NCBI GenBank assembly: GCA_029934055.1
Contig: JAOZMZ010000002.1
Location: forward strand, 14,489 to 78,488
DNA length: 64,000 nucleotides
DNA from: Kiritimatiellia bacterium
GTDB lineage: Bacteria > Verrucomicrobiota > Kiritimatiellia > B70-G9
Direction of reading: 5' to 3'
Shown here: in pieces, positions 1,177-24,364 of the stretch
Layout: the number at the start of each line of letters is the position of its first letter
Numbering within the stretch: the stretch's first letter is position 1
Position numbers and translations under genes: made by a program
Notes under the pieces: model-generated
What the model was told of the DNA's origin: nothing
Seen by the model: the letters and a program-made list of their open reading frames with translations, nothing else
Databases searched by the model: none

Positions 1177-3405
1177 TCACGTCTGCGTGGCTTCCGCCGA
1201 AGGCCGGTTCACCGCCGCCCGCCGGGCTCGAACAATGGATTCCAATACTTCCATGGCGTCCGCCCCCGCCGCCAGGGAAATCACGCCCGGTTCGGCCGTC
1301 AACTCGCTGTTTTCAGCCCCCAATACCACTATGCCGCTGCCGGGACGCAACTTGATGATCGCCCGCAACAGCCCGGCCGGGTCGGACCCGAGAAATCCCC
1401 GATCGAAAACAATCCCCTCCAGCGGGCTGTCGCTGTCCACTTGTCCCAGGGCCGCAACTACATCATCTGCGGCCGTCACCTCGGCACCCGCCTTCTCCAG
1501 TTGTGCCGACAACGACCCGCGATATTCATCGGCGGGCATCGCCAACAAGACGTGTCGTTCCTTTATCAAGGCGCTCGCTTCCTCGCCGGGCAGTGCCCGC
1601 GAGGCAGACTCCCCCGAAATTTTGAACTCGGGAAGGTTCACCCGATAGGCACGCACGGCACCCCGGCGCCGCAGTATTTCCAGCGTCCCGCCCACCTCTT
1701 CGATCATAGTCCGCACCACCGACTGGATGACTCCGACATCCTCGGTCGAGGTCTGGATCGTCGTCTCGGCAGCCCCGAGCGGCGCGGCCGTCTCGGCCTC
1801 CGTGGCGGTTATGAATATCTGCACACCCCCCTCGGGCCCGCTCTGAACATTGAGCCGTAACCTGCCGGGACGACCGAATTCATCGATGAGCACCAGCCCG
1901 AGGTTGACCACCGCCTCTTCGACCTGCGCGCAACCCAAAGGAACGGCCGGCAATCCCCGCCCACATTCCACCTCCATATCCCATAAAGGTGGCACACCAA
2001 CCTTCAACAGATCCGCCGCCCTTTGAACGTGTTCTTCAACGCGGTCACAGGGCGCCTCACTCTCCCGGGACCGACTGAGAGACAGCAAGTGCAGCGAAAG
2101 TTCCGCCCCTCGTTCGGCCTCTCTGATGATGGCTTCCAGCGAAGCACGGTCTTCCGGCTTCTCCATTCCCGTCGCCTTGATCAGCTCTGCATGACCGGAA
2201 ATCGCACAAAGGATATTGTTGAAATCATGCGCCACCCCGCGCGCAATGCGACCGACCACCTGCAAGGCCGCCATCTGTCGGCGCCGCAACTCGACGGTCT
2301 TCTCGTCAGTAACGTCACTGACCAAGATCAGGTCCATGTCCTCCGAGGGCTGGCTGCGAAAACGCCAAACGCGTAGCACACCGGTGTCGCCTCTTACCTT
2401 TTCGATCTCCCGCGGGCGATCCGCATCCAGCAGGAAGGTCACGTCGGCCTCTCCCAGCATGGGAAAAAGGCTTCTGAGGTCCCGTCCTTTTTCATATTCT
2501 CCCGGCGCCATCTGTCGGCCGGCCGGATTACAGCCGGTCACGCGCCGGTGCTTATCGAGCGCCACCAACCCGTCACTGAGGTAATCCATGCTGTCGACAA
2601 ACCGTCCCACGCGCCGCAGGCTCTCGGCGTAGGTCGTAGAACGCACCGCCCACAACCCCATCGCACCCGTCAAAAGAATCAGCCCGATAATCAAGACATT
2701 GAAAGTCAGGGTGACCTCGCGCACCATGGGCTGAATTTCATCCGCATTGTATCCCACCTGCGCATATGCCAATACCATCCCCTGTGGATCGGTAAGTGGA
2801 ATCAGCAGTTCGTCCGCGGAAGGAACCTTTTCGGTATCGAGTGTAAGACCGGTAAAATACGGCATGCGTTTGCGCACCTTCTGGATGTAACGCGGTCCGA
2901 GAACCCGCAGCAGCACCACCAGCGCTTCGCGCCCGCCGCGCGCCGCCGCCAACTCAGCACATGCCGCGGCTGCAAGATGTTCGCCGGCCTTGACAAACAT
3001 CCCATGCCGCCCATCCGCTGTCCCCCCACTTCGCCATGCCCGCCAAACCTCCGGCAGCATGCCACGCGCCTCGTCCGAACCGCGGAAAAGCAGTACGTGC
3101 CCATCTCCATCCAGTACCGCCGCCGCATCCAGTTCTTCTTTCTCCAAAAATTCAGGAGCACAGATTCTATCGACCGCCGCCGCCTGCCCCCCTGCCACCA
3201 CCGCGACCGCCGCCACCAAGTCGCCCAAATGCCGCCGCTCATCCTCCATCCAGTACAACAGCCTGCGGGCTGCGGCCCTGCTTTGCAGGGATACGATAAG
3301 TTCCTGCACGTAGTTGGTCGTATAAACCGCCGCCCGAGTCGCGATCATCAGCAGAAGGATGATCAAGACCGCATAGCGCCACTCCCCTGGACTTATCCTT
3401 TTCAT
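1177..3405 (-). CDS. Hybrid sensor histidine kinase/response regulator: two N-terminal TM helices, a PAS-like region, HisKA, HATPase_c, and a C-terminal receiver
   Basis: The H-box VAHDFNNILCAISGHAELI marks a HisKA domain. A downstream ATPase region carries G-rich boxes. The C-terminal segment ERHVLLAMPADEYRGSLSAQLEKAGAEV...IVVLGAENSE is a REC-like fold. Hydrophobic stretches after the start and near residue 230 bracket a periplasmic loop. Confidence 0.85.
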   Translation of the reverse strand: MKRISPGEWRYAVLIILLLMIATRAAVYTTNYVQELIVSLQSRAAARRLLYWMEDERRHLGDLVAAVAVVAGGQAAAVDRICAPEFLEKEELDAAAVLDGDGHVLLFRGSDEARGMLPEVWRAWRSGGTADGRHGMFVKAGEHLAAAACAELAAARGGREALVVLLRVLGPRYIQKVRKRMPYFTGLTLDTEKVPSADELLIPLTDPQGMVLAYAQVGYNADEIQPMVREVTLTFNVLIIGLILLTGAMGLWAVRSTTYAESLRRVGRFVDSMDYLSDGLVALDKHRRVTGCNPAGRQMAPGEYEKGRDLRSLFPMLGEADVTFLLDADRPREIEKVRGDTGVLRVWRFRSQPSEDMDLILVSDVTDEKTVELRRRQMAALQVVGRIARGVAHDFNNILCAISGHAELIKATGMEKPEDRASLEAIIREAERGAELSLHLLSLSRSRESEAPCDRVEEHVQRAADLLKVGVPPLWDMEVECGRGLPAVPLGCAQVEEAVVNLGLVLIDEFGRPGRLRLNVQSGPEGGVQIFITATEAETAAPLGAAETTIQTSTEDVGVIQSVVRTMIEEVGGTLEILRRRGAVRAYRVNLPEFKISGESASRALPGEEASALIKERHVLLAMPADEYRGSLSAQLEKAGAEVTAADDVVAALGQVDSDSPLEGIVFDRGFLGSDPAGLLRAIIKLRPGSGIVVLGAENSELTAEPGVISLAAGADAMEVLESIVRARRAAVNRPSAEATQT

Positions 3406-3452: not shown

Positions 3453-5498
3453 TCACTGTTGCGCCTGCAACGCCTCCCTGGCAAGATGCTCGTGGATCAA
3501 CTTGCCGCCCGATGGAACCCCGGAAATATCCGTCAAATCTTTGGGCTCCGCCAGCCCGACGGTCACAAAAATTATGACTTCGTCCTGCTCGGCGGCCGTG
3601 TGCGTGTGGCGGAAAAGATACTTTCCGATAATCGGAATATCCCCCAACAGAGGAACCTTTGTGACCTCCTGACGATCCGCCGTCTGCGTCAACCCCCCGA
3701 TCGCAACCGTACGCCCGCTCGCGAGATTGAATTCGGTCTCGATCTTACGCGTCTGAATCCGCGGAAACTCCACTCCAACCTGCTCGACTTTCGCCGGTGT
3801 CAGCAGGCGGCTGAGCTCGGGGGTTATCTTGACGGAGATCCGATCCTTGGTGTTTACCGTCGGCGTTACGGCCAACATGACCCCCACGTCGAAAAACTGC
3901 TGGGCGCTGTCGAGGCCGTAGACATACGTGTTGCCGCTGTCGCCCTGCGGCTTGGCCTGGATATTGGGCTCCCTGACTCCTACGTGAATCGTCGCCGTCT
4001 CCCCGCTGGCCACAATAATCCGCGGGTTGGAAACGATATCAACCCCGCTGTGCTGCTTGAGCGCGCTCAGCGTAATCGCAAAATCGTCCGCCGTCAGAAT
4101 TGCGGAAAGCAACTCTTCGGTGGTGGTCAATACATCATCAGAGACCGCACGGCGATTCTCACTGGCATGCGTGTTGTAGTTCTCGTCCACCCGCGATATT
4201 TCACGCGTGTGATCGCGGGCGGGAACCATGGTTATGGTCCCCTTGCTGGCATCGAACTCGGAGATGTTGTGCCCGCTGACATCGGCATTGAATGTCCCAC
4301 TCTGATACAGCATCGTCGGCACGCCGTTCAGAAGTGCAAAGGCGCTGCTGCCGTACGCCGAATCTATGGAGGCGTCCTGGTACAAGTCTTCGCGCTTGTC
4401 GATATCGCTGTCGGTATAATGCGTTCCCGCCCCCTCCGTATTCACCCGCGTTGAAGTCTCTTGGGTTCCCTTCTTCGAAGTACGCCCGCGTGCATAACCG
4501 TACCGCAAGCCGCGCACACCGATCGTGTAGCCGCTAAGCACCTGCCAGTTGATTCCCAAGTCCTTGATGGCCTGATCATTCAACTCCACGAACTTGGCCT
4601 CTATGAAAACCTGGGGGCGCGGCACGTCCAGCTTGGCGATCGTCTCCTTGATGCGCCCCAGGCGGTTGGCCGTCTCCTGAATCACCAGGGAATTGGCCGA
4701 CGGAAAACCGGCTACGGAAGCATTCGTCGAAACCAGCATGCGGCGCACGATCGGCAAAATATTCGACACCGTCGTATACTTCAGAAAAACCGTATCAACG
4801 GTGACCGGCTCCGACGCCAAATCATCCTTGGACATAATCACGTATATCCCCGGAGCCTTTTCCACCATGGCCATGTCCACCGAATCGAGAATGACCCGCA
4901 GGGCGGGCTCCCACTCCACGTCCTGCAGACTGACCGTAACCTTGCCCTGCAGGTTGGTCCCCGCCACAATGTTGGCGCCGGAAATACGCGTGAACATCCT
5001 CACCACATCCTGCAGCGGCACGTTGTCGAGCGATATGGTGATGAGATCCTTGCGCTCCACCGAAGTCGCCAGCTCTGCTCCGGCGGGCCTACCCTTTTCG
5101 ACCTGTAGCTCTATCAGCTCCTCACCGGAGGATGCCGCCTCTTCCGCAGGAGGCAGACCACCTTCGGCCTGGGCTGCGGCCGCAGTCGATTCAGCCTCGC
5201 CCGCCTCCCCGGAAGTCGCCTCCCCCACCTCTTGCCCCTTCAAAGCTGCTTCCGGCGGACTCTCCTCTCCGCCGACGGCCACACCGGCGAGTCCGTTGGT
5301 CGCCGCTACCTGCCCACCCGAACTTTCCGCAGGTTCCGCCTGCCGGGATTCCATGGAGGTGACCCCCTGCGGCGCGGATGGACTCTGCCCGGGCTGAACA
5401 TTCTCCCCGGCGACCGCCGTCCACGCCACCGCCAAAACCATGGAAAGCATCAAGCCTAAACCAGTATGCTGTGGGTTTTTCATGATGCCCTCCTGCAT
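3453..5498 (-). CDS. pilQ: Type IV pilus / T2SS-family secretin (PilQ/GspD-like)
   Basis: A signal peptide is followed by a long Ala/Glu/Gly-rich low-complexity linker. A secretin-N-type domain follows (NVPLQDVVRMFTRISGANIVAGTNLQGKVTVSLQDVEWEPALRVILDS). The C-terminal secretin signature is present (SNPRIIVASGETATIHVG ... VPLLGDIPIIGKYLFRHTHT...VIIFVT). The gene lies directly downstream of pilMNO-like genes. Confidence 0.85.
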   Translation of the reverse strand: MQEGIMKNPQHTGLGLMLSMVLAVAWTAVAGENVQPGQSPSAPQGVTSMESRQAEPAESSGGQVAATNGLAGVAVGGEESPPEAALKGQEVGEATSGEAGEAESTAAAAQAEGGLPPAEEAASSGEELIELQVEKGRPAGAELATSVERKDLITISLDNVPLQDVVRMFTRISGANIVAGTNLQGKVTVSLQDVEWEPALRVILDSVDMAMVEKAPGIYVIMSKDDLASEPVTVDTVFLKYTTVSNILPIVRRMLVSTNASVAGFPSANSLVIQETANRLGRIKETIAKLDVPRPQVFIEAKFVELNDQAIKDLGINWQVLSGYTIGVRGLRYGYARGRTSKKGTQETSTRVNTEGAGTHYTDSDIDKREDLYQDASIDSAYGSSAFALLNGVPTMLYQSGTFNADVSGHNISEFDASKGTITMVPARDHTREISRVDENYNTHASENRRAVSDDVLTTTEELLSAILTADDFAITLSALKQHSGVDIVSNPRIIVASGETATIHVGVREPNIQAKPQGDSGNTYVYGLDSAQQFFDVGVMLAVTPTVNTKDRISVKITPELSRLLTPAKVEQVGVEFPRIQTRKIETEFNLASGRTVAIGGLTQTADRQEVTKVPLLGDIPIIGKYLFRHTHTAAEQDEVIIFVTVGLAEPKDLTDISGVPSGGKLIHEHLAREALQAQQ

Positions 5499-5591
5499 AT
5501 TGGAGCAACTTTATTCATGATGCGCCTGCCGCCTTTCTTTACTATCCCAACCATTAACACTACCTGTAACACCTCGATTTCTGCCAACCAC

Positions 5592-6263
5592 TCACGTCAT
5601 CTTGCGCGTCCGTACCCGCTTACCCGGAACACCGCTCCCTCCCTGCGACTGCGGCCGCTTGATGATCTGCGGGCCCAAACCCCGCTTCCAGATCGGCCAC
5701 TCCACCGTACAGGCTATGCGGTGCACCTCGGGTTTCGCCGGCTGTCCCGAAATCTCGAAGGCCGCTATCGAAAGATAAGGATTCCTTTCCTCCAGCGTTC
5801 TCACAAAACGCAGGAAATCAAAAAATGTGCACTCGGTAACCAGCCGCACCGTGTAGGGCACGAACTTGCGGTCTATCTTCTCCGAACGCTCCCACGGCAC
5901 CACCCCGGGGCTGACCTCCAGTACGGACTCGATATCAATGCCGACTTCACGCCCTGTGCGGTAAATGTATTCCGTACACCATGTCAGCGGATTCTCGCGG
6001 GATGGTATCAATTCGCGGCTCCAGCGCAAAAGCGCGTCCGAAGTCGCCTTGAATTCGGCCTTAAGCTTGGATTCGCCGATGATCGCCAGCTTGGCCTTCC
6101 GCATCTTGGCCTGCAACTCGCCCAGATCCGTGCGCGCTTCACGAAACGTGGCCAGTGACGGCGTCAACACGAACCGAAACAAGCCGTACAGAATGCCGAA
6201 CGCCAACAGCACCGAAAGAACGATCACCTGTTTCTTTTCCCTGCTGAGGTCCGACCAGTTCAT
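5592..6263 (-). CDS. pilO: PilO-like inner-membrane pilus assembly protein
   Basis: A single N-terminal TM helix (VIVLSVLLAFGILYGLFRFVL) is followed by a coiled-coil stretch and then an alpha/beta domain. A 4-nt overlap with the upstream pilN-like gene suggests translational coupling. Position between pilN and pilQ supports the call. Confidence 0.5.
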   Translation of the reverse strand: MNWSDLSREKKQVIVLSVLLAFGILYGLFRFVLTPSLATFREARTDLGELQAKMRKAKLAIIGESKLKAEFKATSDALLRWSRELIPSRENPLTWCTEYIYRTGREVGIDIESVLEVSPGVVPWERSEKIDRKFVPYTVRLVTECTFFDFLRFVRTLEERNPYLSIAAFEISGQPAKPEVHRIACTVEWPIWKRGLGPQIIKRPQSQGGSGVPGKRVRTRKMT

Positions 6264-6847
6264 TCCATCTTCCTCGGCACCGAGGCCACTTCAACCGCAA
6301 ACACCCGCCCCTCCTGCCCGGGCGGCAGTCCCGGGGCCCTCTGCAAACGCTGCAACTTGACGGTGTCCAGAAACTCCTTGAAGGCCTCGCCGGTCCGCAA
6401 AGTCCGAATAAAACTTACCACGATGGCATCCGCCATGTCACCTCGCACACGCCCTCCCAGCCCCATTTTATATAACCTCGCCGGAGTCGGGGGAAGGTCC
6501 TTTTGCCACTTCGGCGGCGGAATCATTATGAACGTCTCACGAACATTTATCCTATCGATCTGCATCTGGGCCGGCACCACGCGGGCGAATTGCAACAACA
6601 CCTCGTGCCAGGAAACCCGCGAGTTCTGCCACGTCTTCAACTCCTCAATGAGTTTCTTGTTGTCCGCCAACGCCTCCTGCATCGCCCGTACATCCTGATA
6701 ATGCGGATCAATCCTGTGATACGCCGCCCGCGTCCGTTTCAGAGCGACCTTCATCGCCCGTACGTGCAGCACCATGCCCGCCAGTGAAAGCACGACGATC
6801 GCAATGATCGCCAGCCCGATCGCCCGGAAAAGAAACAACTGCGTCAT
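6260..6847 (-). CDS. pilN: PilN-like inner-membrane pilus assembly protein
   Basis: The internal start MTQLFLFRAIGLAIIAIVVLSLAGMVLHV gives a single TM helix followed by a periplasmic domain. The ORF-track version extends 87 aa further upstream into a Gly-rich, improbable region. Position between pilM and pilO supports the call. Confidence 0.5.
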   Translation of the reverse strand: MTQLFLFRAIGLAIIAIVVLSLAGMVLHVRAMKVALKRTRAAYHRIDPHYQDVRAMQEALADNKKLIEELKTWQNSRVSWHEVLLQFARVVPAQMQIDRINVRETFIMIPPPKWQKDLPPTPARLYKMGLGGRVRGDMADAIVVSFIRTLRTGEAFKEFLDTVKLQRLQRAPGLPPGQEGRVFAVEVASVPRKME

Positions 6848-6900
6848 CCGCCCCGGATAACGGCGCTCACTTTCCTCCAGGAACTCTACCCTCAGCTTAC

Positions 6901-7986
6901 TCACGTTTCCAGCACCCCCATGGCCGCACCAACCGCCGCTGCAAAACGCGCCTCCTGCCCCTGCAGCTTCTCGGGAAGCGCGGTCGCACCGATGCACTCC
7001 AGCGGGTTCCACACAATCACCTCTCCGGCCACCGCCGAACGAACACAGTCCACCCAGTAGGACGACATCGCCATCCCTCCGCAGAGATAAAAACGGGTGA
7101 CATGACATTCTTCCCGGCGCTCGACGAAATCCCGTGAAATTGACAGCTGCTGCAAGAACTGCTGAGCGGCCTGTGTCACAAACTGCGAAATATCGAAGGA
7201 ACCCTCCTGAATCACTCGCAATGCCACATCTCGGGTAACCCGCATCTTTTTCTCGAAGAGTTCCGCCACCCGATCACCACCAAGAGGAAACTGCCTCGCC
7301 AGAGCCAATTCCCCACCGTTGAAAAATGCCAGCAGAGTGCCCCGCGCCTCACATGCAATGTAGCCGATCGCACCCTCGTCCTTGGAAGGCGGCCCCCACG
7401 TCGCAAACGCATCCAGACCCGCCAGCGATGCAATCTGTACCGATGCCGCCGCCGGTATCCCCGATTCGACAAGCGATAAAACCCCCGCCACCTCAGCTTC
7501 CGGCAGGGCCGCCGCCAGTATTCTGACCTCACCCTCCCGGCGGCTCCCCGCCCCCATACGCACAAAGCCGAGCCGGTATTCCTTCTCCAGCCCCAGATGC
7601 TCCCGGAGACGGCCCTCCAACCCCTTGGCATCAGCCGCCTTCCCCGTCAGGCTCAAGAAACGCACCACGGCCTCCGGACTCGATACCGCCATGCCGGCAT
7701 ATGTCACCCGCCACTCCCGCGGCAACGGCAAAACCGGCCCGCCCGCCTTCCGGTCTTCCTCTTTTTCCGAAGCCAACTCCAATTTCAATGGCGGCAGCAC
7801 ATCGGCATTGACCAGCGTATACCCCTCCTTGCCCCGCCGAATCCATATGAGCTTGAGGCCCGAAGACCCAAGATCCACCCCCAGTGCCTCACTGACCACC
7901 GGCTCCCTGACTACACCTTTAAGGCTGAAGTCCACCACGGCTCCACAAACCTCCTGCCGCGTCGCCCGGGTCGCGTATCTCCGCAA
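6901..7986 (-). CDS. pilM: PilM, the actin-like ATPase-fold pilus assembly protein
   Basis: The N-terminal phosphate-1-like motif EALGVDLGSSGLKLIWI matches the GxDxGS signature of PilM/FtsA. Its length (about 360 aa) fits. It is the first gene of the pilMNOQ arrangement. Confidence 0.75.
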   Translation of the reverse strand: MRRYATRATRQEVCGAVVDFSLKGVVREPVVSEALGVDLGSSGLKLIWIRRGKEGYTLVNADVLPPLKLELASEKEEDRKAGGPVLPLPREWRVTYAGMAVSSPEAVVRFLSLTGKAADAKGLEGRLREHLGLEKEYRLGFVRMGAGSRREGEVRILAAALPEAEVAGVLSLVESGIPAAASVQIASLAGLDAFATWGPPSKDEGAIGYIACEARGTLLAFFNGGELALARQFPLGGDRVAELFEKKMRVTRDVALRVIQEGSFDISQFVTQAAQQFLQQLSISRDFVERREECHVTRFYLCGGMAMSSYWVDCVRSAVAGEVIVWNPLECIGATALPEKLQGQEARFAAAVGAAMGVLET

Positions 7987-8697
7987 CCCGCGCTCTCACG
8001 AAAGCAGATTCCATGCCCGGAATCCATCTACGGCCTCTCGGCAGGGCCGCCCAACACCGCCGACCGACAGGAAGCGGACACCCATCCACGTATCCCGGCT
8101 GCAGCCCGGCCCGTCCGTGTACGCCTATGGTCCACATCTGCAAAGATTAGGCCAAAAACTTTCACAATGTAAGTAATTTCTCACCTTTCTTCCTCAAGAT
8201 GGGCGTTGCTTTTTCTCATTCGCGCAAATTCGCGGCCGCGTCATGACAGAACGGTTCCTTGGAAAAACATGCCACCGGAAACTCTTTCACCGTGAACCCG
8301 CCTCACAAGACAGCACGTCCGCACGCTTTCCAACACACTATGTGCAGGGTATCTCTCTCTTTTGAAGAAATGCGGGCGGACGCGTCATCCACGCGGCAGC
8401 ATGCACTCAAGACGGCGCGTCTAAGGCCAGGTTATTGTTTGATTTGACACTTGCAGCACCATAAACTGTTGACTGTCGTCACAATAAACAGCGCCTAACG
8501 TGCAACAGCGGCCTACAATCAACGCCGTCGGAGAACACATCGTTCCACCGGCGCATGGCGCAGGGACCCTGCCGCCAACACGCGGCGACGCCCCAAACCG
8601 ACCTGTTTTCCTAAGCGCTGGTATCAAAATTGCTGGTCATAACCCATTGGTACCTTTTGAGAAAAATGATCGTTCCGAAACAGTCTGACAACATCTT

Positions 8698-8704
8698 AAG
8701 GAGG
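8698..8704 (+). promoter_or_regulatory. Shine-Dalgarno sequence (AAGGAGG) for the giant subtilase gene, 5 nt upstream of the GTG start
   Basis: AAGGAGG at 8698-8704, then ATATC, then GTG at 8710. Confidence 0.5.
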
Positions 8705-8709
8705 ATATC

Positions 8710-11700
8710 GTGAAATCGATGGTGGCCGGTTGTTGGGCGTTTCTAGCATTCTGGGGTTCAGCCACGGCGCTTTTCGGAGCCCTGCCGGACAATCCATCCG
8801 GCAATCCAAATCCAGCCGTGCCCGACTATGTACTTACCGTCAGCAGCAGCAACCTCTATAGTCTCCATGCCGCCGGCGCCCCGGTGCAGGCAATTCTGCG
8901 CGACATCGCCCGCGCATCAGGGATAAAAATCCATGTCGCCCCCGACCTCAACACCAAGATAAACGCCGACCTGCGCGACTTGCCCCTGGACAAGCTCCTC
9001 GCTCAACTGGCCGAAAGCCATGCCTTTGTCTACGTCTCTGAAGAAGACGGCATCCATCTGGTCGGCGCCCAAGTAACCTCGCGCAGCAACGAGAAACACT
9101 TATCGCAGGTCGCCACAGTACAGACCGGCAAGACCAAAGCGCGCAGAACAACTTTCATCACCAACTCGGATTCCGATCCGGCACAGCTCCTGCGCGATCC
9201 CGACACCCTCCTGCTGCGAAACGCCTTCATCGATACGCGCGCCGCCGTCGAGGAAGGCGTGCGCCTGTCTGTGCCGCCGGATCTGTCGGCAGCGGAAAAC
9301 AACCCTTACTTTCTCGTGCAGTTCGATCATCCCGTCGGCTCCGCCGATCGTGAACTTCTCAGCGGTGTCGGAGCCGAAGTTCTAAACTATGTTCCCCATC
9401 GCGCCTATCTGGTCCGCATCGCCCCGCAACTTCGCAGCCGGCTCGCCGAAGTACAGGGCGTTCGTTACGTTACCCCCTACCATCCATACTTCAAACTCGC
9501 CCCGCCGCTCCTCGCGTCTCTCATAGGGGTCCCCGACCAGGCCGCCACGGCACAGGTCCGCCGCGGCAAGTTCAACGTGATGATATTTCCGGGGGCTCCC
9601 GATTGGAAAAAGGAACTATCTGCCATCGGCGTCTCTGTGGGCACGGTGGTAACGGCCGGCGGCCGTACGTTCGCCACCGTCCACTGTCCGCCGGAAAAAA
9701 TCCGCGCCCTGGCCGGATGCGCCGCCGTGCAGTGGATCGAACCCTTCGCGCCGCCGACCCTTCTCAACGATATAGGCAACAGGTACACCCACGCCACCCG
9801 CCTGCGTCTCTCTCATCCTTCGCTCGACGGACAGGGCGTCATCATCGGCGTGATGGACACGGGCATTGATTTCAATCACCGGACCTTCGCCGAGGATCCC
9901 TCCCTCCCCACCACGACGGGTCAAAACACCCGCATAGTATATTACGAAACGCGTCCCAATCCCGAAAGCGACGGCATCCCCGGCGACAATGTCGGCCACG
10001 GCACCCATGTCTCGGGCACGATTCTCGGGAATGGAGCCTTGTCGGAAACGGTCGTCAAAGCCCCGGGGTCCGGGGCCGGCCCCTACGCAACCAATGCCTT
10101 CGCCGGAGTGGCCCCCGCCGCGCGACTCGTCATGCTCGAAGGATTCGCCGTCGAGGGATACGGCTACACGGCCACCGAGGCCGCCGAACTAGAATATTCC
10201 CATGGCGCACGTATTTCCGCGAATAGTTGGGGTAATCCCGAGCTTTTCGAATACGGTACGGAAAGTGCCGTGTGGGACGCACTGGTGCGCGATGCCGATA
10301 CCAACAGTTCCGGAAACCAGCAGCTCATCGTATTCTTCGCCGCCGGCAACGACAGCTACGGCAACGTGGATGGAACCGGAGGAACCGCCTCGCGGATCCG
10401 CGAACAGGCGGCCGCCAAGAACGTCATCTCGGTCGGCGCTCTGGAAACCCCCCGCTACGCAACCAACCTGCCGGAATATGCCTCGCTGTGGGAGTCCGAC
10501 TCCGACTGGCAGGTGGCCTGGTTCAGCTCCCGCGGTCCCGTCTCTTCAACCGACCTGCGCGTCAAGCCCGACATCGTCGCCCCCGGATCATTCATTCTTT
10601 CGGCCCAGTCGAAGGATACCAACCCCGATGAAGTCGAAAATCCGCCCCTGCCGAACCGCGACTATCGGCACGGCAACGTGGATTCGGGAACCAATTACGC
10701 TTTCATGAGCGGCACCTCCATGGCCACCCCCATCGCCGCCGGCGCCGGCGCTCTGGTCTACCAGTATTATACCAACACTTATGAAACCACCCCCAGCCCG
10801 GCCATGATGAAAGCCATCCTCGTCAATGGCGCACGCATGGTCAACCGGGTGCTCTATTCCTATCCCGCTTACGGCACCGCGTCCACCAACATCGCCCAAG
10901 GCTGGGGCATGGTGGACGTCTCCCGCGCCGTGGACGGCCCCGGATTGCATGACTCCGACGACGTGGTATGGCTCGACGAAGATCAGACCGCCACGCTCCA
11001 GACGGGCGAAGAATATTCCTACCAGTACTCCGTGGCCGAGGGCGAAGGCGGACTCAAAATCACTCTGGCATGGACCGACGACCCCGGAACACCCGGAAAC
11101 GCCGTCCAGCTCGTCAACGACCTCGATCTGATCGTTATCGCCCCCGATGGGCGCGGTTATGTCGGCAACTACTTCGACTCCGACGGCTGGTCCTCCGCCA
11201 TTGTCGCCGATCCCACCAACAGCGTCTACGGCGATCGCTACAACAACGTCGAGCAGGTCGTGATACCGGAGCCGGACGCCGGAACCTATTATATCCGCGT
11301 CATCGGCCATGAAGTCCCCGGATCCGGCCAGAATTTCGCCTTGGCTATCATGAAAGGAATCTCGCCGGTCCCCGCCCATACTCAGGGCGGCCACCCGGCC
11401 ATGGTCCTCGACAGCAACCAGTATCCGATCGTCGCCTGGTCAGGCGACGACGGCGGCGGCCATGATCAGATCTTCGTGAAGCGCTGGCAGGGAGCCACCG
11501 GCGACCAATCCGATATCGGGCACTGGAAACGCCTCGACGAACGCTGGACCGACATGAATGACTCCGCCAGGATCACAGGAATAAGCAAGACCCTCGAAGA
11601 TTCCGAAGACCCCTGTATCGCTGTCTACGGCGAGCTGATCTACGTCGCCTGGAAAGAAGAAGCTCCCCTTTCGGGACCTGCCCATATTCACCTGCGCTGC

Positions 11701-14700
11701 TGGAACGGGACCAACTGGATAGAATTGGGCCAGTCCGCCCACGACACCGGACTCAGCGGCGAAAATTCCTACAGTGCCTCCGATCCATCCATCTCCCTGA
11801 CCTCCAACGGTCTGCCGATAGTTGCCTGGAGACAGCCCGTCCTCAACGGTACCGAGTACAACGAGCAGATCCGTGTCGTCCGCTGGGACGGCACCAACTG
11901 GCTGGGCTATGCCGGTTCGGATTCGAACGGCATTCCGGGAACCGGACAGTCGACAATTACGCCTACGATGATCAGCGACGCCGCCGGCCGCCCCGTCATC
12001 GCCTGGTACGGCCTGCCCTCCGGCGGCGGCAGCCCGGGCATACACGTCTATCGCTGGGATGGAAGCGCATGGGTGAGCATCGGGAGCCCCGTCTCGGCAA
12101 CCGGCGTCCAGGAACCCTCCCTGGCCCTCGCCCCCAACGGGGATATCTATCTGACGTGGGTCCAGTTCGGCTCCGGAATCGACGAACCCAACACCCAGAT
12201 CTACGCGGCCCACTATTCAGGGGGGGGCTGGCATGAATTCGGCGGATCAATGACCTACCCCGGCATCAGCTCCTCAAGCAATACCGTCACCGATCCCGCC
12301 GGCCCGGCCATCTCCATCGCCCCCGACGGCACGGTCTATGTAGCCTGGCAGGCCGGCAATAACGATCCGAATTCGCTTTTCCTGAAAAAATACTCCGGCG
12401 GCGCATGGGTCGGTATACTTCAGAGCGATGAACCCCCCGGGATCGCCCGCAGTGGCGGAATCGCCACGAACACCGTCCTCTTGGCGGACGGCTACGGCCT
12501 GCCGGTGGTCTCGTATTCGGCCATCGTCAGCGGGGACAAACAAATCTTCACCTACCGCCTGGTCACCGATGAGCTTCCCCCGGCCTTCACGGGGCTGAAG
12601 GACGCCGCCGGAGGCACCAACAGCAATGTGTCTCTTTCCTGGGATCAGGCCGTGGATACCTCCACCACCATCTACTATCACATCTATCAAAGCACAAACT
12701 TCTGGCTCTGCGGGCAACAGCCCTCCTGTGACGCCGATGACGTTTTCAATCACGAAATCGCCGTTGTCACCAATACCACCTCCTACGAAGTCACCGGTCT
12801 GCAAAACGACCGGCTGTGGTGCTTCGGCGTGCGCGCCGAAGACACCAACGGCCTCCTCGACGCCAACACCGTCATGCACTCCGCCGGACCAATCGCCGGC
12901 GGCGGCGATACCGATGGTGACTGCCTCGAAAATTCGCTCGAATTCGCCGCCGGTACCGAGCCCTGCCTGCAGGATACCGACGGAGACGGAATGTGGGACG
13001 GCTGGGAATGGACCTATTCCACCAACAACCCTGCACATACCAACACCTTCTCCCTGGATCCCCTCGACAACGGCAACGACCGCGTCCGCACCGCCGAACC
13101 CGATGACGGCGACCCCGACCAGCTCCCGGATGCCGACCTCGACAACGACGGCGCTTCCACCCTTGAGGAATTCGAGTGGTGGTACACCAATACATACCTG
13201 AGCACCGGCTGCGACGCCACCGGACCCACCAACCGCAGCGGCCCCGACCCCACCAACCCCGACAGCGACGGCGACGGCATGAACGACGGCTGGGAAATTT
13301 TCAACGACCTCAATCCGGGGGATCCTTCCGACGGCGCCGTTGACGCCGACGGAGACGGTGTCGCCAACAGTAATGAGTTCGCCTACGGCATCGACCCCAC
13401 CAACCCCGACAGCGATTCCGACGGCATAACCGATGGAGACGAAATTCAAACCTATGGAACCGACCCGTCTCTGCCGGATACCGACCGCGACGGGCTCGAT
13501 GACGGGTTTGAACTCCAGATAGGCTCCGATCCTCTCGACGCCGACAGCAACGACAGCGGCGTGAGTGACGGTGATACTTTCCAACTCGGCTGGGACGATC
13601 CTACCCTGCCGATCACCAACTTCAACCTGCTCCTCTCCGAAAACTTTGAACCCTCGTCACCCACCCGCAACCAGTGGACTCACTACTGGACCGACGGGAA
13701 TTATCCCTACGACTTCTGGCATTTTTCCACCGCCGAGCCCGCCCCGAAAACAAACACGGTCGTCTACATCACGGATCACTCCACCAGCACGGTCTACCGC
13801 ATGGCCGCCGACCCCAGCGGCACCAACGTGGATGCGACTTACAGTACCGGCAGCATCGTTCAATGCGCCCTTGAGAGTCCCGCCATCGACGCTTCCGCAG
13901 TTGAAAACCTGTTCGTCTCCTGGAACGAATTCTACGCCACCGAACCGCAATGGGATATCATGGAACTCCAGGCCCGTGCCGGAAGCGACAGTAACTGGTT
14001 CGTCGTCAGCGATACACGCTCGGGCTTCAGCTATGGATGGACCAATCGCGTTGCGGACCTCACCCGCTTCGCCGGCATGACCAATGTCCATCTGCGTTTC
14101 TTCTTCGCCGCCCAAAACTCTAACAACAACGCCTACGCCGGCTGGTTCGTCGACGACGTGCGCGTTTACGAAGGTGTAACCATCACCGGCTGGGTGCGCG
14201 ATATCAACGGGCGCCCGATCGCCGGCGCTGAAGTCATGGCCATCGGCCGCGGACAGGTGACCAATGCCGTCCACGGACATCGCTACGTCCTGCCCGGTAA
14301 AGTGTTCGGCACACGTACCACCACCGCTGACGGTTCTTACCAAATCGCCGGCCTGCCCCAGGGGCACTATTACGTCAAGGCGTCTCAAGCCGGCTATGTG
14401 GATGAATTCTACAATGGCCCGCTCTTCTCCGGCCAGTACGGCTTCGGAAACCTGCTCAATCCCGGCGTCCCCGACAGGGATCAGGTCACCTCCGCGGGCT
14501 GGGTCAACCTTACCGGCACCGGCCAGCGCGTTGAGTGTGATTTCGAGCTCGAAAAAGGCAGCGGCCGCGGCTACCTGGGAGTGATGCTCGCCAACGGTGC
14601 CGGATCCTCCTACGAAGTGTTCCTCAACGGCCTCTCGGTAGAAATCTGGAACGGCGTCACCAATTCCGATACGAACGCCCCGCCGGTGGCCGACCTCGAA

Positions 14701-17700
14701 CCCTACCGATCATCTACCAATACGACGCTCTGGAATAACCATCCCGACTGGATCACCAACCCGGTCGAGCCCCTCCTCATCGCCGACATCGCCCCCGGCA
14801 GTCACCTGGTGAGCGCCGGAACGAATCTGACGCTCTATCCCCCGGCCGAAGTGCTCGTACGCGAGGGAGAAATAAGCCTGGTGAACATCTTCACCAACCA
14901 GGGCGAAGGCCGTCTCTACGTCACCGCCGATGACGACGGCGCCTATCCCGTCTGGCTGGACGGACGCGATACCGGAGAGCTGACCCCGGTCCTGCTGGCC
15001 GTTAAAGCCGGAGAGCACACCATATGCATTATTCCCACCAATTCACTTCGCGTCGCCCCCCAAACCGCCGATGTACCGCTCGGCGTCCGCGTAAAGGTCG
15101 CCTTTTCCACCAACGATATCAGCGGCAACCCCGGTTCTCTCTTGATTCAGACCGTCGACGTCAACGGCAATGCCGTCACCGGCGCCGCGGTCTACGTCGA
15201 TGAACGCCGCGTCGAGCCCGATGAGGTCTCCCAGGGATACACCAACCTGACCCCCACGATCGTCAACAACCTTCTGCCCGGCAGTCACCTCGTGACCGTC
15301 TCCAAGGACGGTTACGCCGCCGCCGAACTGCGCCCCATCGCCATCGGTCAAGGTATCCAAAGCGAGATCACCTTCGTCCTGCATGAAGCCGATAGCGACT
15401 ACGACGGCGTGGGCGACTGGACGGAAATCAGCGGCTACACCAACCGCTTCCTCTACGCCCGGGACGACGACCCCGATAACGACGGGCTCAACAACCTCTT
15501 CGAGTTCGACCAGTACCGCCTCTTCGATGTGCGCCTCAATATCTTCAACGCCGACAGCGACGGCGACGGCATGCCCGACGGCGATGAGCTCGGCTACGAC
15601 GGCATCACCAACCGCCTCGCCCTTTCCAGCCTGAGCACCAACGCCGTCCAGGGCACGGATACCGTCCGGGCATATTTCGTCGGCCGCTACCTCGAAGGTA
15701 TCGACAACTTCGGTCAGGACCATGTCAACCCGGCCGTCGAGTGCGACCGCTTCGAGGCCAGCACGGTCTCTCATCCGATGATCCCCGTCCCCGCCGTCGA
15801 TCCCGCGCTTACCGTCTTCGGAGGAATACCGCCCACGGTCTCCGAACGCGCCGTGGACGTGGGCCATAATCCGGGCGCCGTACTCCTCGCCGATGCCCTT
15901 CCCGACCAGCAGGATACCGACGGCGATACACTCTGGGACGGCTTCGAGTTCCAGTTCGGCCGCGATACCGTCGCCGGCCTTGATCCCACGGAATGTTCCG
16001 ACCCCAACGCCGACCCGGACTACGACGGCGCCTCCAACTACCGTGAATTCCTCGGCGCCGACGGCCTGGCCAATACGAACGACTGGTCGGATCCCACCAA
16101 CCCCGACAGCGATGGCGACGGCATGCCCGATGGATGGGAATACGACCACTCTCTCGATCCGACCGATCCCTCCGACGCCGCCGAGGATTCCGATTCCGAC
16201 GGCCTGGCCAACAGCAATGAGTACGTTCATGGCACCAATCCTCAACTCCCCGACACCGATAAAGACTACCTGCCCGACGGCCCGGAAGTGTTGCAGTACC
16301 AATCCAACCCGCTCAAAACCGACACCGACGGAGACCACCTCATTGACGGACGCGAGGTTTGGGATTGGAACACCAACGGCGTCTTCGACGGGGGCTTCTT
16401 CCACTTCCCAAGCAACCACATCCCCGGTGACCTGGACGGCGACGGCATGCTCGACGGTCCGTCCGACTGGGATACCGACGGCGACGGTATGCCCGACGGT
16501 TTCGAAGTCATTGACGCCTTCGGCAACGTCCGCAGCCCGGCCCTGGATCCCTACAACCCCAACGACGGTGACGAAGACTACGATGGCGACGGGCTTAATA
16601 ACCTTGAAGAATATCTCGTGTGGAACGCACAATACGGCAATCCGCCCGGATCCTTCGATACCAACTACGGATATGTCGTCTGGGATTACTCCACCGACCC
16701 GTTCAACCCCGACAGCGACGGCGACGGCATGCCCGATGGTTGGGAAGTCATCTACGGCCTCCATCCCATGGATCCCATCCCCGTGGACGGCGTCCTCCAG
16801 GTCCGCTATCCCGAGCTCGGCGCCGATGGTGATGTTGATCATGACGGACTCTTCAACGAACGTGAATATTCGGTGCGCTTCCTGATCAATCCCGGCGCCG
16901 ACAGCAATTCGATCACCGAGGCCAGTACCAGTCCCTGGAATCCCGACAGTGACGGCGACGGGCTCGGCGACGGCGAAGAAGACCGTTCCTTCCGCTGCAG
17001 CCCCGTCGTCCAGGACACCGACCGCGATGGACTCACCGACGGTGTATCGCTTACCGGTCACTGGGCCGAAGTTGAATCCGCCCCGCGCCTGGCGAACGGC
17101 GCCATGAGCGTCAGCAATCACTACGACCGTGCGCTGAACGACCTCTGGCGACTCGTCTGGCCTAAGTTCCAGGATCTGCCCAACTGGGAACAGGTGACGC
17201 CCAACACAAACAACCCCCTGCCGGAACCCCGCTGGGGCCCCGCCGCTACCTATATTCCGGTTTTCGAAATAAAAACCCGGGAAATAGACAGCGGTCTCAA
17301 GACGACGAATACCGTGCTGCTTGATAACCGCCAGATCGTGATCATCGGCGGGCGCGACGGCGTGGAACGGTTCACCAATATTTGGGAATTCGTCATCCGC
17401 TCGAATTCATGGGTGCTCAGTGATGCCACCCTCGACGACATAGGCCTCTCCGAAGGTCTCAGCGAGGTCAGCGCTGTCACCCTGCTGGGATATTTCAACA
17501 CCCGTGCCGACCAGTGCCCGTGCGATAATCAACCCTATTACTGCGATGGCACCTCTTTCGGCCTTCCCAAGAACCGTCCCTGGGACAACGGCTACGGCCG
17601 TTCCAGCTTCGACTGGACCTATATCCTCGGCGGCTGGGACGAAATCCACAACTATTACCAGCCCGTCCCCATGCCGTCCTACTACTACAAATCCACCGAC

Positions 17701-24211: not shown

Positions 24212-24364
24212 AACTTTCGAACCACCCCGCCGGAATCCCTGAGGGGCCTGTCACGAGGGAATATCCCCTTTCCCTCACGCGGATGCAAACTCTCCCGGGC
24301 TTGATCAACCGCCTTCTCAATCTGCTTGACAGTTACCCGTTTTCATGTTAACAAAAAAGTAACG

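Follow-up and report, generated by a model that had tools for sequence, protein, structure and literature searches.

The DNA analysed here, called the window below, is a stretch of 64,000 nucleotides from an uncultured Kiritimatiellia bacterium, and it carries on its plus strand an open reading frame of 4,052 amino acids (8710-20868) that codes for a protease precursor of about 440 kDa. This frame opens with a GTG codon, with AAGGAGG 8 nt ahead of it; the public copy of the protein (P0002) starts at ATG and has one serine fewer in an SSS run. The general layout is given in Table 1. The N-termini of the orthologues are comparably hydrophobic, which supports the putative signal peptide by sequence inspection only. 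A lipoprotein reading of the motif VAGC at residues 5-8 was rejected on inspection: the motif lies too near the start, and the signal peptides of the orthologues are of the ordinary kind. Behind the N-terminal domain that is the subject of this work comes a tail, kept in alignment A5, and a linker, the two together having A120, T123, N152, L169, N171, A172, I174 and D175 as invariant columns in alignment A3. The doubled prodomain that follows is recognised at the level of the family: among the 27 prodomains of alignment A4, Inhibitor_I9 is matched by 14 (best 3.3e-5) and the Fervidolysin_NPro-like model by 7 (best 1.2e-5), the window member matching neither, and the similarity of protein P0001 to the giant protease (query residues 1-370) is confined to this region. 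The pair N353-D354, directly behind the prodomain, is invariant. The catalytic domain matches Peptidase_S8 at 3.8e-43 (148 bits) and the KP-43 structure 1wmd at 2.1e-47; its Asp-His-Ser motifs (DTG, HGTH, GTSMATP) are intact by eye, and the enzyme looks active. In the long passenger region, Pfam recognises PPC, BNR-like and fn3 domains, TSP3 repeats, CarboxypepD_reg, PEGA, a Kelch propeller and a C-terminal Ig-like domain. Sequence inspection and the Pfam scan gave no recognisable C-terminal sorting signal, and the same scan of all 4,052 residues found no secretin beta-barrel (PF00263), no N1-type ring domain (PF03958) and no match to Plug or TonB_dep_Rec.

Table 1. Features of the protease gene and of its divergent neighbours (window positions).
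Feature	Position	Strand	Basis
pilM, pilN-like, pilO-like, secretin operon, divergent from the protease gene	3453..7986	-	Pfam, NCBIfam
N0 of the neighbouring PilQ/GspD-like secretin, residues 146-224 of ORF 3453-5498	4827..5063	-	BLASTP, Pfam, profile A1
Divergent intergenic region, 723 bp	7987..8709		Rfam, locus comparison
Putative Sec signal peptide, VKSMVAGCWAFLAFWGSATA, then LFG	8710..8769	+	direct sequence reading; cleavage site estimated
N0/STN-fold domain, residues 40-119	8827..9066	+	AF2 model, Foldseek, protease-only profile
Family-specific tail (A.VTS..) and linker with conserved N...LL.NA.IDT motif, residues 120-186	9067..9267	+	alignments A3, A5
Tandem subtilase prodomain (I9 / fervidolysin N-pro-like), residues 187-352	9268..9765	+	family-level Pfam matches
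Peptidase S8 catalytic domain, KP-43-like, residues 374-733	9829..10908	+	Pfam, PDB
Passenger region, about 3,300 residues	10909..20868	+	Pfam scan

On the other side of the intergenic region lies a pil operon, in which neither Pfam nor NCBIfam showed a separate pilP. Its last member, about 3.8 kb from the N-terminal domain of the protease, is a PilQ-like secretin with the secretin barrel (PF00263) and N1-type domains (PF03958); its N0 gives weak matches to the Pfam N0 and STN models and is matched by profile A1 at 1.6e-17, in the near-identical copy of a same-strain contig (L001). The 723-bp region between the two genes holds no Rfam family, and that same contig is the only one of the fetched loci to resemble it. 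No FecR or ECF sigma gene was found in the neighbourhood within the window.

The segment 8824-9075 translates to DYVLTVSSSNLYSLHAAGAPVQAILRDIARASGIKIHVAPDLNTKINADLRDLPLDKLLAQLAESHAFVYVSEEDGIHLVGAQV, residues 39-122 of the giant protein, and it was compared with the STN / secretin N0 superfamily (Pfam PF07660, PF21305, PF16344). By BLASTP it aligns with residues 146-221 of the neighbouring secretin, the N0 region, at 24% identity (E=3e-6), and this secretin is the only non-self phmmer match among the six-frame reading frames of the window (E=2e-4). Taken alone, the window sequence meets Pfam STN at E=0.0014-0.013 (15.8-18.8 bits, under the cut-off of 28.4) and FecR_C at E=0.002-0.01 (16.3-18.5 bits, under the cut-off of 24.4), and Pfam gives it no match to the N1-type Secretin_N; it further has weak matches in the PDB (the N0s of PilQ, 4ar0, and EscC, 3gr5) and in NCBIfam (the N-terminal ends of the SctC, EscC and PilQ models), all on N0. 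Within the family the signal is clearer: Pfam STN is matched by eight of ten protease N0s (best 3.7e-7) and FecR_C by nine. A profile (A2) made of ten protease-family sequences and containing no secretin at all retrieves from the PDB the N0 of HofQ (2y3m, E=7.5e-6) and PilQ (3jc8, 1.4e-4; 4ar0, 5.8e-4). When residues 36-135 were searched by phmmer against 1.84 billion proteins, 153 matches were obtained at E<=1e-3, most of them secretins with two to eight tandem N0 copies, the best E-values against secretins reaching 5e-26; all ten secretin matches that were scanned exceed the curated cut-off of Pfam STN, and nine of them that of GspD_N0.

The AlphaFold2 model of the domain (pLDDT 84.8), with elements in the order E-E-H-E-E-H-E-E, contains the two beta-alpha-beta motifs of the N0 fold, its input alignment being rich in secretin N0 copies and so biased toward that fold; prediction from the single sequence was unusable (pLDDT 36.7). 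The order of secondary structure read from the single sequence and the protease-only profile lessen this concern without removing it. Foldseek against the PDB returns a probability of 1.00, with query TM-scores of 0.62-0.66 and rmsd of 1.7-2.2 Å over 71 residues (4m0n, InvG, 6ovk, 4jtm); its best matches are a FecR-like STN, the N0s of PilQ, XcpQ, InvG and EscC, and the STN of PupR, with the FecR-like anti-sigma factor 4m0n in first place and FpvA only at rank 41.

Residues ~40-119 of the giant protease are a secretin-type N0/STN domain. This is what the original prediction had proposed, and profile A2, phmmer and AlphaFold2 with Foldseek agree on it; the alignment with the neighbouring PilQ N0 and the superposition of the model on known N0/STN structures came out as it had anticipated. 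The extent that it gave holds for the fold, but the peptide it quoted is residues 50-118, not 40-120. The profile search it had suggested falls short for the window sequence on its own, and finds no Secretin_N, but recovers STN in eight of the ten family members scanned.

Related loci were found by an alignment-based genome scan, a single-sequence scan having given none. Of the 28 other loci that include the N-terminus of the protease, 26 have an N0 there, always together with the linker and the tandem prodomain; the two others (L022 and L028) have shortened N-termini with no detectable N0, which tells us that some lineages can do without the domain. All named sources are Kiritimatiellia or carry an allied MAG label, so that the succession of signal peptide, N0, linker, tandem prodomain, S8 domain and long tail defines a family so far limited to Kiritimatiellia and allied MAGs. 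Identity to the window member is 22-41% for the N0, similar to the 28-43% of the prodomain, and we can therefore understand the N0 as being under purifying selection. An N0 of this subtype, its ...LVSA.LTSQQ tail included, also heads two HEAT-repeat proteins with a Sec signal (P0144, P0090), and a third (P0095) joins N0 and HEAT repeats without this tail. None of these N0-headed HEAT-repeat proteins carries a prodomain, and the genomic context of one of them (L032) was uninformative. Public labels of the protease orthologues read "S8 peptidase", "S8 family serine peptidase" or "hypothetical", STN being absent both from their annotations and from their precomputed Pfam lists; our literature search found no paper pairing 'STN domain' with subtilisin, and nothing relevant on Kiritimatiellota giant proteins and secretins. 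The association of an N0 with a subtilase is thus as unusual as had been surmised: a known domain in a new architecture.

The original prediction also drew a functional argument from the divergent pilMNOQ neighbour, and this does not extend to the family. Among the 24 other related loci for which 2 kb or more could be read ahead of the protease gene, the arrangement occurs in two (L003 and L009, the closest relatives) and is missing in 22; besides the window it is thus found in these two and in the same-strain contig only. A small coiled-coil ORF precedes the protease in 15 of the 24, though not in the window. The divergent pil block of the window, L003 and L009 comes with a kinase: in L003 this is a conserved HisKA kinase, and in L009 a kinase fragment lies at the contig end; the kinase goes with the pil genes and is missing from most protease loci. 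Recent capture of the N0 from the adjacent pilQ was considered and rejected: the protease profile scores the organism's own PilQ N0 at about 25 bits and proteobacterial N0s at 25-29 bits, and the protease N0, being no closer to its own PilQ, was therefore not borrowed recently from the neighbour gene. The further suggestion of a module for peptidoglycan anchoring finds no echo, since Pfam scans of the giant protein and its neighbourhood gave no AMIN, LysM or OmpA-like domain, and N0/STN domains are not known to bind peptidoglycan.

It is worth placing the domain among its relatives. With the N0s of secretins (PilQ, HofQ: 4ar0, 2y3m, 3jc8; GspD/XcpQ, InvG, EscC) it shares the fold, with detectable homology, and an N-terminal position, periplasmic in secretins and predicted to be so in the protease; judged by sequence, it is closest to the N0s of PilQ and HofQ. 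In secretins, however, the N0 is followed by N1-N3 rings and a beta-barrel, where the protease has a subtilase prodomain and an enzyme, and the A.VTSQQ tail of the protease N0 is family-specific. The N0 of PilQ is bound by the HR domain of PilP and that of GspD by the HR domain of GspC, strands associating edge-on (PMC3441751; PMC3169554). The same fold is found in the STN of transducers (FecA, FpvA, PupB) and in the C-terminal STN of FecR/PupR (6ovk, 4m0n), which mediate heterodimeric periplasmic contacts, as in the complex of the PupR STN with the PupB NTSD (PMC7186176). Pfam STN and FecR_C are the best profile matches of the protease N0, as in that class; yet the giant protein has no plug, barrel, TonB box, anti-sigma domain or nearby ECF/FecR gene, and by sequence its N0 lies nearer the PilQ class. 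The N0 topology has been reported from outer-membrane transport proteins only, in the complexes of which this fold class forms or decorates rings (PMC3093366). Legionella DotD and Xanthomonas VirB7 (XAC2622) carry an N0 without being secretins and build peripheral layers of such complexes (PMC2951367, PMC3093366); they are small lipoprotein parts of machines, whereas the giant protease is an enzyme. As regards the catalytic half, the best solved relatives are KP-43-type subtilases (1wmd, 5fax), with a cleavable pre-pro region similar in its I9 / fervidolysin-like character, but with a C-terminal beta-barrel domain in place of an extension of ~3,300 residues. Mature KP-43 has about 430 residues, and we know of no N0 domain in it, in contrast with the N0 that the giant protease has ahead of its doubled prodomain.

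The reading that we favour, with a probability that we would put somewhat under one half (about 0.45), is that the N0 is a periplasmic docking module of the zymogen for parts of a secretin machine, shed with the prodomain. Once the precursor had been exported by Sec, the domain would work in the periplasm, on the zymogen, by protein-protein docking. Known N0/STN domains contact their partners through an edge strand or a helix, and components of a secretin-based envelope machine would therefore be the likeliest partners, be it an adaptor of the HR type or the N0 ring that the secretin itself has in the periplasm. Precedents for such contacts are the HR domain of GspC or PilP with the secretin N0, and FecR/PupR with the transducer STN. 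Docking of this kind, which we consider plausible, would bring the very long precursor into place for crossing the outer membrane, or keep it there; among the candidate partners is the pilMNOQ operon next door, which adjacency does not single out. Because it lies upstream of the prodomain, the N0 would be part of the precursor and probably not of the mature enzyme: it would act on the zymogen and probably be lost on activation, autoprocessing releasing it along with the prodomain, a tag that would serve for a time only, to target the precursor or to hold it. Prodomain cleavage is taken here from general subtilase biology, and some subtilases, such as CspB, retain their prodomain. A more daring version, which we regard as unlikely, would see in the N0 a cis-encoded, structurally defined tag mimicking the secretin N0, which in Kiritimatiellia binds the HR-type adaptor or the N0 ring of a secretin machine, routes the Sec-exported giants and the N0-HEAT cargo to or through the secretin and is then discarded along with the prodomain; if this is true, secretin-dependent protein export would have its first recognition domain that is both discrete and portable.

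Several other roles have to be weighed against docking. It is possible, if rather doubtful, that the domain is intrinsic to the zymogen, assisting folding, oligomerisation, inhibition or periplasmic chaperone binding with no link to a secretin. Its invariable company of linker and tandem prodomain and the lack of conserved pil linkage would suit this idea, and the frequent coiled-coil ORF hints at a dedicated small partner; yet the window keeps its N0 without a coiled-coil gene, the presence of the subtype on HEAT-repeat proteins indicates that it is not bound to subtilase maturation, and all characterised N0/STN domains serve envelope transport or signalling complexes. Nor do we think it likely that the N0 is an anchor which remains bound on the periplasmic side of a channel in the outer membrane, inserted into the N0 ring of a secretin or sitting under it, for instance, and tethers the protease to the cell surface. 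It would then work like the N-terminal retention module with which LapA-type giant adhesins plug their outer-membrane channel, but retention of this type belongs to type I secretion and is not known for a Sec route combined with a secretin. A passenger built from binding and repeat domains, as surface proteins typically are, the lack of a recognisable C-terminal sorting signal, and a location just after the signal peptide in a class of folds that form or decorate rings (PMC3093366) would all agree with an anchor; the prodomain, however, separates the N0 from the catalytic domain, and normal autoprocessing would cut the tether. It seems quite improbable that the STN serves signalling as in TonB-dependent transducers, contacting a FecR-like anti-sigma factor or the neighbouring sensor kinase and so informing the cytoplasm of the state of the substrate or of the protease: the Pfam matches, the first Foldseek rank, the kinase of L003 and the kinase fragment of L009 point that way, but FecR and ECF sigma genes are lacking near the protease in the window, the sequence is nearest PilQ/HofQ rather than transducer domains (with FpvA far down the Foldseek list), and the kinase follows the pil genes. 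Finally, a chance resemblance of some generic small alpha/beta domain, to which the sub-threshold Pfam scores of the window sequence and the poor single-sequence model might lend colour, has a negligible probability, being contradicted by the phmmer search with its E-values against secretins, by the protease-only profile and by the Foldseek probability; independent searches (BLASTP, phmmer within the window, profile A2, PDB, NCBIfam) converge on N0 only.

How secretin export systems recognise their substrates has long been open; to our knowledge no portable signal has been defined, and no sequence signature is known for the substrates of type II secretion. As far as we know, earlier descriptions of the N0 fold concern machine components, found in secretins, TonB-dependent transducers, anti-sigma regulators, DotD, VirB7 and phage/T6SS spikes, not in cargo enzymes. 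An N0 placed before the prodomain of a ~440-kDa protease is a concrete candidate for a docking tag. Were it to be an accessory module of the pro-region only, it would make a modest addition to the domain architectures of subtilases. An unannotated domain is also flagged in proteins labelled "S8 family serine peptidase" or "hypothetical". The N0-headed protease spans a whole class of little-studied PVC bacteria, the subtype being present also on unrelated HEAT-repeat proteins, and it may be relevant to the export of the many giant proteins that PVC bacteria have.

The peptide that the original prediction likened to an STN/secretin-N domain is the translation of window positions 8824-9075, residues 39-122 of the giant ORF, and the protease-only profile, BLASTP, HMMER and Foldseek agree in placing an STN/N0-type domain at the N-terminus of the giant protease. 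Taken alone, the window sequence stays under Pfam's curated cut-off, matching STN at E=0.0014-0.013 (15.8-18.8 bits, cut-off 28.4) and, also below threshold, FecR_C at E=0.002-0.01; Secretin_N, an N1-type domain, has no Pfam match in the window's N-terminal stretch, so that of the two families anticipated the first was recovered below threshold and the second not at all. Weak matches came likewise from the PDB (PilQ N0, 4ar0; EscC N0, 3gr5) and from the N-terminal ends of the NCBIfam models of SctC, EscC and PilQ, all of them pointing to this one fold. A HMMER scan with residues 36-135 through 1.84 billion representative proteins gave 153 matches at E<=1e-3, the majority being secretins bearing 2-8 tandem copies of the domain (STN passes Pfam's curated cut-off in all ten secretins scanned, GspD_N0 in nine). 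Other matches, forming a second group, carry the domain once, at residues ~40-130, immediately after a signal peptide, and the window layout of N0, prodomain and S8 domain is common to ten of these single-copy proteins.

The profile built from protease-family domains only (A2, 10 sequences, no secretins) has secretins, without exception, as its top 13 matches, and it matches the solved N0 domains of HofQ (2y3m, E=7.5e-6) and of the PilQ proteins of M. xanthus (3jc8, 1.4e-4) and N. meningitidis (4ar0, 5.8e-4); judged by sequence, the protease N0 is nearest to the PilQ/HofQ class. AlphaFold reached a pLDDT of 36.7 from the single sequence and of 84.8 (element order E-E-H-E-E-H-E-E) from a 57-sequence alignment, A1, whose secretin copies bias the model toward the N0 fold, the A2 result being the independent control. 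The structural superposition came out as foreseen: the top Foldseek matches of the A1 model in the PDB are solely of the N0/STN class (probability 1.00, TMq 0.62-0.66), among them the FecR-like anti-sigma factor 4m0n (rmsd 1.7 Å over 71 residues), the N0 domains of PilQ, XcpQ, InvG and EscC, and the STN domain of PupR (6ovk), with FpvA and phage baseplate proteins lower in the list. We regard the assignment to the STN/N0 superfamily, on profile homology and on fold, as settled.

The GTG start of the giant ORF has AAGGAGG eight bases before it; the public gene call (P0002) begins at ATG 8719, with a poorer ribosome-binding site. By inspection, the protein begins with an apparent Sec signal peptide (VKSMVAGCWAFLAFWGSATALFG...). 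The catalytic motifs DTG, HGTH and GTSMATP are all intact, the solved structures nearest to the catalytic region are the subtilases KP-43 and SubHal (2.1e-47), and the protein is an S8 subtilase of KP-43 type. Among 27 aligned members (A4), the prodomain region matches Inhibitor_I9 in 14 (best 3.3e-5), Fervidolysin_NPro-like in seven (best 1.2e-5) and CspB_prodomain in one; the window member's own residues 187-352 match no prodomain family in the Pfam-type scan. Ga0072683_111404, a JGI metagenome contig, matches the window (61.8% G+C) at 99.6% identity; its near-identical copy P0002 reads SS vs SSS here at residues 45-47 (8842-8850), a one-codon polymorphism in Ser-run length at the N-terminal edge of N0.

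Features of the window and domain order of the giant protease (nt, window positions; aa, residues of the protease)
Feature	Position	Strand	Basis or remark
HisKA sensor kinase, 742 aa (CHASE4-like, PAS, HisKA)	nt 1177-3405	-	directly after secretin gene
PilQ/GspD-like secretin	nt 3453-5498	-	Pfam/NCBIfam scans
PilN-like and PilO-like proteins (two genes)	PilO-like nt 5592-6263	-	Pfam/NCBIfam scans
PilM	nt 6901-7986	-	Pfam/NCBIfam scans
Giant protease ORF	nt 8710-20868	+	4,052 codons
N0 domain	aa 40-119		after probable signal peptide
A.VTSQQ tail	directly after N0		family-specific
Linker with N...LL.NA.IDT	between tail and prodomain		invariant motif
Tandem (doubled) subtilase prodomain	aa 187-352		
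S8 catalytic domain	after prodomain		then ~3,300 more residues
Peptidase_S8	aa 374-733		Pfam, 148 bits
PPC-like domain			Pfam
TSP3 repeats			Pfam
CarboxypepD_reg and PEGA domains			Pfam
Kelch propeller			Pfam

The family was assembled from GTDB species representatives, which, scanned with an alignment, gave 23 loci (L009-L031), and from exact look-ups, which added L002-L007. All scanned loci but one (22 of 23) are titled as Kiritimatiellia/Kiritimatiellae, Lentisphaerae or Verrucomicrobia MAGs, the exception, L023, being just an 'uncultured bacterium'. The giant ORFs, of at least 3,700 aa, extend beyond the ends of the fetched loci, with identities to the window protein of 55-57% (P0020, P0018) and 46-48% (P0084, P0140, P0099, P0042). 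By the A2 profile, N0 is present in 26 of the 28 other loci with an available N-terminus (L030, cut off by its contig end, is outside the count); L022 and L028 have shortened N-termini that this profile does not match. Identity to the window is 22-41% in N0 (A5, the N0 alignment) and 28-43% in the region that follows (A4), so that the two are conserved to much the same degree. In three loci the giant gene is split into several consecutive ORFs (L007:10001-21941, L025:9754-20945, L029:8207-9733), either because errors of assembly or sequencing introduced frameshifts or because the gene is truly decaying into a pseudogene; the break lies inside or just past N0 in L025 and L029.

The same N0 subtype, with its ...LVSA.LTSQQ tail, also heads the Sec-signal HEAT-repeat proteins P0144 and P0090, and P0095 is likewise N0 plus HEAT without that tail, so N0 acts as a portable N-terminal module. 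These three proteins (L008, L032:6691-7947) have ~270-420 aa; in P0144 and P0090 N0 ends in ...LVSA.LTSQQ/TSREQ before a charged linker. Two further single-N0 proteins, P0134 and P0117, have unrecognised C-terminal parts. The best matches of the N0 query, P0003 (1354 aa), P0004 (1348 aa) and P0006 (1175 aa), are multi-N0 secretins in which 4-6 N0/STN copies, each detected on its own, and up to 8 matched stretches stand in tandem before the N1 and secretin domains; to our knowledge, their periplasmic stalks far exceed the length of those of model secretins. A second very large ORF of the window (24326-29401, +, 1,691 aa), weakly MdoG-like (periplasmic glucan biosynthesis) at residues 610-985, contains no N0 by profile or phmmer.

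As had been supposed, the domain resembles that of the neighbouring PilQ: residues 146-221 of that secretin align with it (BLASTP E=3e-6), and the secretin is also the sole non-self match among the window's six-frame ORFs (E=2e-4). The A2 profile scores this N0 at ~25 bits, no better than proteobacterial N0 domains, and a recent copying from the adjacent gene is therefore rejected. The further argument from gene neighbourhood did not hold: besides L001, from the same strain, the divergent pil arrangement recurs in only two, L003 (a 55%-identical relative) and L009, of the 24 other loci whose upstream sequence extends for 2 kb or more, so that adjacency is a one-subclade feature and a specific tie of the protease to the pil operon is weak. 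The secretin itself scores much alike for PilQ (205 bits) and GspD (181 bits), under the NCBIfam cut-off in both cases, so that the block may serve either a pilus or a secretion system; its first ~145 residues are without any family match. Pfam and NCBIfam find no pilP in the divergent block, none standing between the secretin gene and the PilO-like gene. The kinase, for which no HATPase_c match is listed, keeps its position in L003, and a kinase fragment stands at the contig end of L009. Rfam finds nothing in the 723-bp pilM-protease intergenic region; only a tRNA gene (630-703, +) reaches its gathering threshold anywhere in the window.

Where N0/STN domains have been characterised, they mediate contacts between proteins in envelope complexes. 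[quoted passage not shown] By Pfam the giant protease has neither PF00263 nor PF03958 and so is no secretin; lacking plug and barrel, it is no TonB-dependent transducer either.

N0 precedes the prodomain, and subtilase autoprocessing, if it proceeds as in relatives, would remove both together, leaving the periplasmic precursor as the sole form on which N0 could act. By gapless extrapolation of the alignment, which gives no more than a lead, the invariant N353-D354 falls within one residue of the start of the KP-43 chain, which we take to begin with ND. We may then see N0 as a transient periplasmic docking tag on the zymogen, whose partner would be a component of a secretin system, either an HR-type adaptor or the N0 ring of the secretin, and whose docking would position this very long zymogen for passage through the outer membrane; to this whole chain we give a probability of about 0.45. 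An unlikely but serious alternative is a module of the pro-region, or a unit that binds a chaperone, independent of secretins and possibly partnered by the product of a small conserved ORF of 140-170 aa with signal peptide and coiled coil. In 15 of 24 related loci this ORF precedes the giant gene by 0-265 bp, on its strand, and it may encode a chaperone or other periplasmic partner dedicated to the protease. This ORF (L012:9396-9824, L013:9324-9839, L031:9316-9804 and 12 more loci) has ~110 aa of predicted coiled coil and a conserved E.EY.DPE...LR.E...LE.Q motif; it was not found in the window, whose subclade has the divergent pilM in its place, and a DinG-like helicase lies farther upstream in ten loci. 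A permanent retention anchor is rather improbable, as the domain would be lost with the prodomain, and a transducer-like signalling role is very improbable. That the likeness to N0 arose by chance is scarcely credible beside the protease-only profile.

N0, a known domain, here occurs in a new architectural context, ahead of the prodomain in a giant secreted protease. So far this architecture is limited to Kiritimatiellia-type bacteria and has gone unannotated: public records name the family "S8 family serine peptidase" or "hypothetical protein", STN is not in the precomputed Pfam lists of the orthologues, and our literature search found no publication pairing "STN domain" with subtilisin. The N0-headed protease offers a testable handle on how secretins recognise their substrates, the functional link being inferred.
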